From assembly GCA_000004695.1 (NCBI GenBank), contig CH709178.1, positions 1 through 2,239 of the forward strand: a DNA stretch of 2,239 nucleotides, in the 5' to 3' direction. Origin of the DNA: Dictyostelium discoideum. Lineage: Eukaryota. Below are positions 584 through 2,239 of this stretch, piece by piece. The stretch's first letter is position 1. Every line of letters starts with the position of its first letter. The notes under the pieces were generated by a model. It saw only the letters and a program-made list of their open reading frames with translations, did no database searches and was not told the DNA's origin. Both the position numbers and the translations under genes were made by a program.

Positions 584-603
584 TTTATCCAAAAATGGAT
601 AAA
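584..603. promoter_or_regulatory. Perfect inverted repeat TTTATCCA-(AAAA)-TGGATAAA (8-bp arms)
   Basis: Read directly from the sequence. It is formed by the inverted and direct GGATAAA copies and is a candidate dimeric factor site. Confidence 0.35.
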
Positions 604-749: not shown

Positions 750-771
750 AAATGTTCTAAAAAGAACATTT
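750..771. promoter_or_regulatory. Perfect inverted repeat AAATGTTCT-(AAAA)-AGAACATTT (9-bp arms)
   Basis: Read directly. It contains G/C, so it is unlikely to be a trivial AT palindrome. Confidence 0.4.
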
Positions 772-788
772 AAAAATAACTATTAATA

Positions 789-805
789 TTGAATTAATAA
801 TTCAA
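789..805. promoter_or_regulatory. 17-bp palindrome TTGAATTA-A-TAATTCAA (8-bp arms, 1-nt centre)
   Basis: Read directly. Confidence 0.35.
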
Positions 806-962: not shown

Positions 963-1298
963 ATGTCAACTAATAATAACGAAGATATTGATAATGATGA
1001 ATTGCAACAACAGGATAATGAGGAACAACAACAACAACCACAGGTATCAACATTCAATGAACAGCAACGTCAGATAAGGGAACAGCAGCAAGTAATAGAT
1101 AAACAAAATCAACTTCTTCAACAACACATTCAATTAATAAATCAACAATCTCAACAACAATTAAATAATCATTCGACACCACCATCATCACCCAACATTA
1201 CAACACCAATAACTTCAGCAGCAATAACCAACACAATAAAGAAATCATTAGGAAAATTTAACACTGATGATACCGACCACCAGTTGTTACAAAAATAA
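963..1298 (+). CDS. Gln/Asn-rich low-complexity protein of 111 aa, single exon within the window; function unknown, possibly coiled-coil or prion-like
   Basis: ORF track 963..1298. Gln is encoded almost only by CAA, which is typical of dictyostelids. The composition is coding-like (G/C present, no long homopolymers), in contrast with the flanks. The in-frame GT at 1044 is not an intron because the sequence after it stays in frame and coding-like. Stop TAA is at 1296-1298, followed by several AATAAA motifs. Confidence 0.55.
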   Translation: MSTNNNEDIDNDELQQQDNEEQQQQPQVSTFNEQQRQIREQQQVIDKQNQLLQQHIQLINQQSQQQLNNHSTPPSSPNITTPITSAAITNTIKKSLGKFNTDDTDHQLLQK

Positions 1299-1320: not shown

Positions 1321-1360
1321 TTAAAAGTAATTTATTATTTACCTTCAATTTTTTTTGAGG

Positions 1361-1395
1361 TTTTTTTTTTTTTTCGCAACTGGCGCTTTTTTTTT
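1361..1395 (+). repeat. T14 - CGCAACTGGCGC - T9: an isolated 12-bp GC island flanked by oligo-T between the two genes
   Basis: Read directly. This is the only run of 5 or more G/C pairs in the intergenic region. A weak 3-bp stem CGC/GCG is possible. Confidence 0.5.
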
Positions 1396-1572
1396 AATTA
1401 AATTAAAAAAATAATATGAAAAATTTAAAAATAAATAAAATTTTTTTTTTTTACTTTATGGTTCGATTACAATAAAAACAATTTGAAATGGAGACAAAAA
1501 AACCATCAAACATAAGGTTAATAAATAAACTTCAAATTTTTTTTGAAGCTGAAAAAAAAAAATAAAAATTTT

Positions 1573-1638
1573 ATGGTGAAAAACTTTATTAAATATATTA
1601 TTGAAACACCGCAATATAGTCATCTAAATATTAAAGAG
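1573..1638 (+). CDS. Exon 1 (MVKNFIKYIIETPQYSHLNIKE) of a spliced gene for a pogo/Tigger-like (CENP-B-type HTH plus DDE_1) transposase-like protein
   Basis: ATG at 1573 is the first Met after an in-frame TAA at 1522-1524. The exon ends on a complete codon GAG, followed by GTACGA. Reading through the intron hits TAA after 5 codons, so splicing is required. The K..I..IIE.P...... I.EI pattern resembles the CENP-B N-terminal/psq HTH. Confidence 0.45.
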
Positions 1639-1715
1639 GTACGATTAATATTTTAATTTTAATATTGTATTATAAAAATTTTTTTAATTAAAATATAATT
1701 ATAATGGTAATTTAG
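1639..1715 (+). other. Intron 1 (77 nt, GTACGA...TTTAG, phase 0)
   Basis: It is over 85% A+T. The only AG in the interval is the terminal TTTAG at 1711-1715. The downstream open frame begins exactly at 1716, immediately after the in-frame TAG formed by the acceptor. Confidence 0.55.
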
Positions 1716-1895
1716 ATACATGAGGTAGTAGGAACTACTAGACAAAATGTCTCTAAATATTACAATATGTTTCATGGTGGTGTTTTAGATAATACAAGAG
1801 GATTATCAGACAACGATATTTTAGAGATGGATAAAATTTTGGGTGAAAACCATAAAATTAACTCACCATTAACAAAAGAAGAAACTAAAACAGAG
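1716..1895 (+). CDS. Exon 2 (IHEVVGTTRQNVSKYYNMFHGGVLDNTRGLSDNDILEMDKILGENHKINSPLTKEETKTE) of the transposase-like gene
   Basis: It contains the listed ORF 1767..1949 but is open from 1716, directly after the acceptor. IKE|IHEVVGTTRQNVSKY completes a helix-turn-helix-like motif (hydrophobic-x-x-G-x-(S/T)-x-x-x-V-S-K-Y). It ends at codon GAG 1893-1895 before GTACAT. Confidence 0.6.
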
Positions 1896-1965
1896 GTACA
1901 TATTAATTTAATTATAAAATTAAATATTAATCATTTAATGCTAATATAGTGAAAATTTTATTTAG
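1896..1965 (+). other. Intron 2 (70 nt, GTACAT...TTTAG, phase 0)
   Basis: Read-through stops at TAG 1947-1949. The alternative acceptors at 1949 and 1969 give the wrong frame. Only the acceptor at 1965 joins the 89-codon open frame starting at 1966. Confidence 0.6.
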
Positions 1966-2232
1966 TTAGCTAATATTATTAGAAAAAGAAACCCAAATTA
2001 CACACATCCATGTGTTTCTGATACTTTATATTACCAATATTTTAATCACGATAATAACATTAGACTTTTAAAAGGATCAATACGTACGGATGCCCGAACG
2101 AACGTCAATAGTGAACAGGTGGTACAATGGCCAAAGGATCAACAGGATTTTCTAATTAAAAATAAGGTACCGTTGGAAAGGATATGGAATTTGGACGAAA
2201 CAGCAATAAAACTTGATGAAACTGCAGTTAAG
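1966..2232 (+). CDS. Exon 3 (partial; gene continues beyond the window): LANIIRKRNPNYTHPCVSDTLYYQYFNHDNNIRLLKGSIRTDARTNVNSEQVVQWPKDQQDFLIKNKVPLERIWNLDETAIKLDETAVK. It contains an IWNLDETAI motif matching the first catalytic Asp region of pogo/Tigger DDE_1 transposases
   Basis: It is 89 codons with no stop in about 80% AT DNA. The frame opens exactly after the TTTAG acceptor. It ends at AAG|GTAAAAG at 2233, which may be the next donor or simply K-V-K if coding continues. A CG-rich codon patch (CGT ACG GAT GCC CGA ACG, 2083-2100) is atypical for the host. Confidence 0.6.
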
Positions 2233-2239
2233 GTAAAAG

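Follow-up and report, generated by a model that had tools for sequence, protein, structure and literature searches.

A 2,239-nucleotide stretch of Dictyostelium discoideum DNA (contig CH709178.1; the whole stretch is called the window here) ends in a spliced reading frame that runs off the contig. The initial annotation took this frame for the 5' part of a pogo/Tigger-like transposase gene, belonging either to a DNA transposon or to a host gene derived from one, with the remainder lying beyond the 3' edge. The locus therefore raises the question of what kind of gene this is, and whether the remainder is present past the contig end. Our analysis indicates that positions 1342-2239 are very probably the left 0.9 kb of a dead, ~2.2-kb cut-and-paste transposon that belongs to the pogo superfamily and shows Fot/Fot-like features. 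The features on which this reading is built are collected in Table 1.

Table 1. Coordinates of the element and its gene within the window.
Feature	Position	Strand	Remarks
Probable left copy of the 3-bp target-site duplication (TSD), TTA	1339-1341	+	homology to other copies begins at the next base
Left terminal inverted repeat (TIR), tip CCTTCAATTTTTTTT...	1342-1452	+	reverse-complement alignment to the right end of L008 (111 bp, 75.7%)
CGCAACTGGCGC, sole G+C-rich block in the TIR	1375-1386	+	candidate transposase-binding site
Ancestral 5' part of exon 1 (METKKPSNIRLINKLQIFFEAEKKK)	1488-1565	+	homologous to P0001 residues 1-26
Exon 1 as given in the initial annotation	1573-1638	+	HTH 1 (psq-like): helix 1 and start of helix 2
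Intron 1	1639-1715	+	GTACG...TTTAG; position common to L001
Exon 2	1716-1895	+	remainder of HTH 1 (recognition helix region VGTTRQNVSKYY) and HTH 2 helices one and two
Intron 2	1896-1965	+	GTACA...TTTAG; same position in L001
Exon 3	1966-2232	+	end of HTH 2 (Tc5/CENP-B type), linker helix, IWNLDETAI block
Intron 3 donor GTAAAAG	2233-2239	+	contig end; intron 3 here in L001, L005 and L008

Gene structure and ancestral start

When exons 1-3 are joined in a single frame over the two GT..AG introns with TTTAG acceptors, as the initial annotation had proposed, they encode a product of 171 aa ending in ...IWNLDETAIKLDETAVK (...ETAVK), or of 173 aa with read-through of the final 7 bases. A protein search found this product to be 100% identical to P0002, 'hypothetical protein DDB_G0294368, partial' (D. 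discoideum AX4), and P0001, a 201-aa protein from D. cf. discoideum, to be 86% identical across the entire window product (E 1.9e-94). The proposed joins are borne out by this homologue and by the codon-position bias: when the window exons were compared with those of the P0001 locus (L001), the differences at codon positions 1/2/3 were 20/6/75, with pN/pS of 0.12 and dN/dS of ~0.05. Identity between the two loci is 80% in the exons and 77% and 60% in the introns. The introns at 1639-1715 and 1896-1965 likewise stand, as both introns of L001 are at matching positions and the gene for P0005, a 57%-identical relative, has coding sequence that continues unbroken over both window exon junctions. 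The predicted three-exon reading is confirmed as genuine by comparative evidence rather than by transcripts.

The window as a whole is 78-89% A+T, with short coding islands that are richer in G+C. An Rfam search of the window gave 0 matches, and that of a full-length copy gave three chance-level matches (E 0.5-0.8). A tRNA scan found no tRNA genes, and a repeat scan of the window returned only low-complexity A/T matches.

The choice of ATG 1573 as the gene start did not survive the comparison. This ATG is not the ancestral start, because other copies of the gene have ATT (Ile) at the aligned codon. The ancestral reading frame starts instead at ATG 1488 (METKKPSNIRLINKL...), the counterpart of MERPIISNVRLINKL... 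in P0001, whose N-terminus lies 28 residues upstream of the start of the window product. The two starts are separated by a frameshift: one T has been inserted at 1563, within a coding A-run, giving the stop codon TAA at 1563-1565 and a +1 shift. L003, from the independently assembled genome of another strain of D. discoideum, has the same T, which is therefore a true mutation and no sequencing error.

Domain content of the transposase family

The Pfam search proposed in the initial annotation for CENP-B_N, HTH_Tnp_Tc5 and DDE_1 produced zero matches with the 173-aa window fragment, even at E<=10. Two sub-threshold matches of the fragment, to McrBC (E 0.018) and to DUF6926, were treated as noise. 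With respect to DDE_1, the search of the fragment was uninformative, because the Pfam model (PF03184) begins ~30 residues beyond the first catalytic Asp (its profile position 5 corresponds to residue 220 of the L001 reconstruction described below) and the fragment holds almost none of it.

The full-length members of the family do match this model. A second homologue search identified the longer relatives P0004, P0005 (519 aa, intact), P0006 and P0007, the last being AX4 DDB_G0292434, for which the UniRef name is already 'DDE-1 domain-containing'. P0005 matches DDE_1 with an E value of 1.7e-12 (47.7 bits) and the reconstructed L001 protein with an E value of 2.4e-14 (53.7 bits), the curated cut-off being 22 bits; the latter protein is a 394-aa product obtained by removing a 29-bp tandem duplication and frameshifts from the downstream exon of L001. 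Full-length copies thus match DDE_1, and weakly DDE_3, but not DDE_Tnp_4. These matches uphold the reading of the flagged interval as the 5' part of a pogo-type (DDE_1) transposase gene.

With P0005 as query, an exhaustive phmmer search returned 3,745 relatives at E<=1e-3, of which 321 reach E<=1e-10. Distant fungal and microsporidian relatives contain both PF03184 and PF03221, and one of them is named as Tigger-derived; among the named relatives from outside the dictyostelids, the nearest one found is fungal and combines a CENPB-type HTH with DDE_1. Synstelium (a dictyostelid) and other D. discoideum strains also have related proteins. We aligned 27 pogo-like proteins, i.e. 25 relatives together with P0005 and P0001 (alignment A2), of which 26/27 have DDE_1, 16/27 HTH_Tnp_Tc5 and 12/27 HTH_psq. 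The near-invariant columns of this alignment (27 proteins, P0005 numbering) are N181, D183, E184, D293, Q326, P327 and D329.

N181, D183 and E184 correspond to the W-N-x-D-E-T block to which the initial annotation had drawn attention, and its identification of IWNLDETAI (coded by 2182-2208) as the first catalytic-Asp block is supported by the near-invariance of N, D and E among the 27 proteins. The family triad is D183/D293/D329 in P0005, i.e. DD35D, where the spacing taken as pogo-like was DD29-59D. The second and third catalytic Asp that had been expected at such a spacing are present in the family relatives but not in the window copy, where the first Asp codon (GAC, 2194-2196) is the sole triad member and the triad is incomplete, as read from the syntenic locus L003.

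The N-terminal domains were compared by hhalign, with the N-terminal parts of P0001, P0005 and the window product on one side and 21 independently aligned pogo-like N-termini on the other. This gave a probability of 95.1% (E 2.9e-8) across 129 columns that cover both the psq and the Tc5 region, and 83% when the window sequence was used alone. Control comparisons were clean, with 0.1% for the reversed sequence and <=1.4% for 20 column shuffles. In the AlphaFold2 model of the window product (pLDDT 82.8), residues 2-42 and 54-108 each form a three-helix bundle, with a linker helix after the second; the best structural match is CENP-B(1-129). A bipartite HTH (psq-like plus Tc5/CENP-B type) is therefore found at the N-terminus, in agreement with the CENP-B-type HTH originally suggested, although a profile-profile comparison is weaker evidence than an HMM match.

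Intact relatives have a transposase of ~520-540 aa with a basic C-terminal tail that contains AT-hook-like motifs. As many as four introns interrupt the family gene, whose first exon begins directly inward of the TIR.

Element ends, target site and fate of the window copy

Complete elements of the family were found at L008 (2,181 bp), L009, L010, L005, L001 and L004 (2,748 bp). L008, L009 and L010 are full-length copies, and the 511-aa model P0163 is encoded by L008. L005 carries an internal deletion, and L001 is a complete 1.9-kb element that is a deletion derivative. L004 (5217-7964) is a distant element that codes for the intact P0005, and its tip and G+C-rich block are those of the other elements. 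We considered whether P0005 could itself be a domesticated gene, and this was rejected as its element shows the family TIR tips and is flanked by TAA/TAA. Copies from D. cf. discoideum (L001, L005, L009 and L010) share 94-99% identity with L008. The subfamily is therefore young, and this degree of identity points to recent activity in that species. The window copy is ~78% identical to the copies of D. cf. discoideum.

Homology between the window and the family elements begins exactly at 1342 (CCTTCAATTTT). The TIRs had been expected beyond the 3' edge; the left TIR in fact lies inside the window, at 1342-1452 and hence upstream of the flagged interval. Upstream of the element is a small 111-aa Q-rich ORF (963-1298), whose stop codon is 43 bp away. 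All copies have the tip motif CCT[TC]CA[AT]TTTTT at both ends, and the core GCAACTG(G/A)C is conserved at either end of every copy, the distant L004 among them. This block occurs 1 time in the window vs 0 expected (200 shuffles), and it is a candidate transposase-binding site. The TIRs of L008, L009, L010 and L005 are imperfect and ~110-128 bp long. L001 has 322-bp near-perfect inverted ends that include exon 1; a 322-bp TIR was rejected as the family norm because it is confined to this derivative, the full-length copies having ~110-128 bp.

With the element ends taken at CC...GG, the left/right flanks are TTA/TTA in L005, L009 and L010, TAA/TAA in L004, TGA/TGA in L001 and TAA/CAA (imperfect) in L008. 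Direct 3-bp flanks are thus seen in 5/6 complete elements, with TTA/TAA in 4/6 and TGA in 1. The TA target duplication anticipated in the initial annotation gave way to these 3-bp repeats, since a TA reading, with TIRs starting ACCTTCA, makes the flanks mismatch in L001 and L005 and leaves L001 with no fitting duplication. The target rule was read from 6 complete elements, one of them with TGA and one with an imperfect pair.

The expectation that the remainder of the DDE triad and the right TIR would follow past the 3' edge was contradicted by the syntenic locus. L003, which was reached via P0014, a cluster mate of DDB_G0294368, belongs to a 5.29-Mb chromosome from a different strain of D. discoideum; its identity to the window, over the entire length of the latter, is 99.8%. 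Past the point that matches the window end, intron 3 has shrunk to 21 bp and is followed by 76 bp of exon 4 (...NYSQHVTMI), after which the element ends at ~10753, 86 bp beyond the window end. In place of the rest of the element stand unrelated DNA and, in inverted orientation, a 114-bp duplicate of an exon 3 segment. A tblastn search of L003 with the full-length transposase found nothing beyond residue 196 and nothing further within 10 kb. The truncation is an observation on the assembly of the other strain, the AX4 contig itself ending at 2239. Judged from L003, the window insertion is a fossil that would be devoid of the second and third catalytic Asp and of the right TIR, because the L003 element stops 86 bp past the window.

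The following sequence of events would account for these results. The element would have inserted at a TTA in D. discoideum, 43 bp downstream of the small Q-rich gene. The intron-containing transposase gene would start just inside the left TIR, as in the intact relatives. By analogy with characterised pogo/Tc1-mariner transposases, we infer that the psq-like and Tc5/CENP-B-type HTHs would jointly bind the TIRs, probably at GCAACTG(G/A)C, and that the DDE_1 domain, with its RNase-H fold and D...D35D triad, would cut both ends of the element and insert it at TWA/TNA with a 3-bp duplication. In the window copy, the T insertion at 1563 strips off the first 28 codons. The truncation soon after the first catalytic Asp would leave a copy that makes no transposase and that is predicted not to be mobilised in trans.

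The initial annotation had also allowed for a host gene, and DDB_G0294368 could be proposed to be a domesticated pogo-derived gene whose product, made from ATG 1573, is a functional DNA-binding protein. The locus is annotated under that name, two strains of D. discoideum share it at 99.8% identity, its exons have a strong signature of purifying selection, and both HTH domains would be intact in the 171-aa product. However, neutral DNA would also be expected to be 99.8% identical between strains of one species, and the selection signature dates from the past as an active transposon, having been measured against a copy with its own TIRs and TSD. Moreover, the window copy keeps its TIR and a TSD-like flank, its ancestral start has been lost by frameshift, and in L003 it ends in the 21-bp intron remnant and the truncation, followed by the inverted exon 3 duplicate. 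The combination of a TIR, a broken ORF and a truncation makes domestication very unlikely. A still smaller probability, close to nil, attaches to the idea that the frames are chance ORFs in AT-rich, low-complexity DNA with fortuitous splice sites. The genome is ~78% A+T, TTTAG and GTA strings are frequent in it and the fragment has no Pfam match, as such an idea would predict, but it fails to explain the 86%-identical protein homologue (E 1.9e-94), the 20/6/75 bias towards codon position 3, the conserved intron positions and the thousands of remote homologues.

Duplications of the 3-bp type TTA/TAA are classical for PIF/Harbinger elements, and the TTA/TAA flanks seen here could on that ground be ascribed to a PIF/Harbinger-type transposon with 3-bp TWA duplications, the DETA motif being coincidental. 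Against this, the full-length copies match DDE_1 and not DDE_Tnp_4, the nearest named relatives are the fungal protein with CENPB-type HTH and DDE_1 and the protein named as Tigger-derived, and there is no second, Myb-like ORF. Furthermore, pogo itself includes elements known to duplicate TAA, namely Fot and Fot-like ones (PMC7386202), and we regard a PIF/Harbinger origin as next to impossible.

Relation to known transposons

The features of the Dictyostelium family fit the Fot/Fot-like clade of the pogo superfamily, a placement that rests on shared features. Members of that clade have DD35D, HTH_psq plus HTH_Tnp_Tc5 and TIRs of 40-100 bp (PMC7386202), and TAA duplications occur in most Fot and in some Fot-like elements (Gao et al. 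2020, PMC7386202). The Dictyostelium family resembles them in its DDE_1 domain with DD35D, in the N-terminal pair of psq-type and Tc5-type HTHs, in the 3-bp TAA (=TTA) duplication in place of TA, and in its TIRs, at ~110-128 bp vs the 40-100 bp of the clade. It differs in having HTH domains too diverged for Pfam, a gene with up to four introns whose first exon lies just inside the TIR, AT-hook-like motifs in the C-terminal tail and, in one insertion, a TGA duplication. Dictyostelium is absent from the main text and from part of the supplementary table of PMC7386202, where the Amoebozoa passages concern Entamoeba invadens.

The family shares its superfamily with pogo, Tigger and CENP-B, i.e. 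a DDE_1 core together with a bipartite CENP-B-type DNA-binding domain. However, sequence identity between these proteins and those of the Dictyostelium family is only 15-21%; pogo and Tigger have TA duplications and short TIRs, and the window copy, unlike CENP-B, is no domesticated gene. The C. elegans elements Tc4/Tc5, as described by Collins & Anderson in 1994, reportedly have a Tc5-type HTH, long TIRs and a TNA trinucleotide duplication. On that description, the TTA/TGA duplications and the derivative with 322-bp TIRs would be points of likeness, whereas the wider target of Tc4/Tc5, CTNAG, does not occur in the family flanks.

Among D. discoideum DNA transposons, Glockner et al. are said to have catalogued thug-S/T, DDT-A/B/S and Tdd-4/5 in 2001. 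It is possible, if not quite probable, that the family described here is a dictyostelid Fot-like pogo lineage absent from that catalogue, extinct in D. discoideum and recently or currently active in D. cf. discoideum. According to a 2017 review, the DNA transposons known from D. discoideum are Tdd, DDT and thug, their transposases are like no known ones, and thug accounts for ~0.1% of the genome (PMC5633606). Thug-S is an intron-containing DNA transposon with a miRNA-like locus in its intron (PMC4894637), and Tdd-4/5 carry integrase-like enzymes (PMC2836005). By description, thug resembles the present family in its host, its introns (thug-S) and its low copy number, and thug, DDT and Tdd differ from it, again by description only, in that the family here is clearly DDE_1. 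We looked for intron hairpins like the thug-S miRNA locus in the 2 window introns and in 4 intronic stretches of L008, and found none beyond shuffles (z -1.66 to +2.1).

The window element itself is thus an unremarkable, defunct representative of an already known type of transposon, and DDB_G0294368 would be better annotated as a transposon relic than as a hypothetical protein. With these results, at least one family of Dictyostelium DNA transposons can be linked to pogo, in contrast to the account in the 2017 review (PMC5633606). If this family were to be thug, the published claim that the transposases of Dictyostelium DNA transposons are like no known family would be overturned. The window copy is of significance as a fossil only; the only further lead is provided by the D. 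cf. discoideum copies, which look young and may be autonomous and which, together with the intact 519-aa transposase in that organism, are candidates for a native cut-and-paste tool in a model organism.

Distant and derivative members of the family

The distant member of the transposon family in locus L004 of D. cf. discoideum shares the terminal inverted repeat (TIR) tip CCTTC...GCAACTG with the rest of the family and is flanked by a TAA/TAA duplication. Its transposase gene has only one intron and an intact ORF (P0005, 519 aa), and we regard this element as a candidate autonomous element.

In the derivative element in L001, another D. cf. discoideum locus, the left 322 bp, taking in transposase exon 1, recur in inverted orientation in place of the right end, and it is this replacement that gives the element its near-perfect long TIRs. 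Its exon 4 carries a 29-bp tandem duplication together with frameshifts.

The coding A-run of exon 1, which encodes a run of Lys (window 1552-1568), varies in length between the copies in the window, L001, L005, L008, L009 and L010 and, as assembled, breaks the reading frame in L008 and L010. This variation could reflect either a real slippage hotspot or homopolymer errors in long reads.

Features of the window and of related loci
Feature	Location	Strand	Basis
Perfect palindrome TTTATCCAaaaaTGGATAAA	window 584-603		read from sequence
Perfect palindrome AAATGTTCTaaaaAGAACATTT	window 750-771		read from sequence
Perfect palindrome TTGAATTAaTAATTCAA	window 789-805		read from sequence
Gln/Asn-rich ORF, 111 aa (MSTNNNEDIDNDELQQQ...)	window 963-1298	+	ORF reading
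Derivative element, 1.9 kb	L001 9860-11761
Tyrosine-recombinase and RT genes (DIRS-like), adjoining decayed copy	L002 5177-6884 and 21057-21289
Unrelated repetitive sequence, then inverted exon piece, directly 3' of truncation point	L003 10754-10986
Distant family member, 2,748 bp, D. cf. discoideum	L004 5217-7964
DDE_3 (Tc1/mariner-type) gene adjoining family copy	L005 1-166	-

Sequence on either side of the truncated copy

In L003, the syntenic locus of another D. discoideum strain, the truncation point is followed by ∼120 bp of unrelated repetitive DNA (...taaccttaaaaattaccttt...) and then by a segment that repeats window 2031-2144 in inverted orientation with 97% identity, which implies a local rearrangement.

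Upstream, the stop codon of the Gln/Asn-rich ORF lies 43 bp from the left end of the transposon. The ORF gave only sub-threshold matches to Pfam, and at the syntenic locus it is annotated as a gene (L003 9391-9726). The three short palindromes were picked out by reading the A+T-rich intergenic sequence 5' of this ORF.

Genomic neighbors and transposase C-termini

The mobile elements found near family copies in L005 and L002 are consistent with the clustering of repeats in Dictyostelium.

Inspection by eye of the full-length transposases, i.e. P0004, P0005, P0006, AX4 P0007 (DDB_G0292434), P0008 and the L008 model P0163, revealed a basic C-terminal tail with AT-hook-like motifs, e.g. PKKRGRPSKVT and NGQPRKKYTKK. 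Motifs of this kind would fit binding in a genome with an extremely high A+T content.
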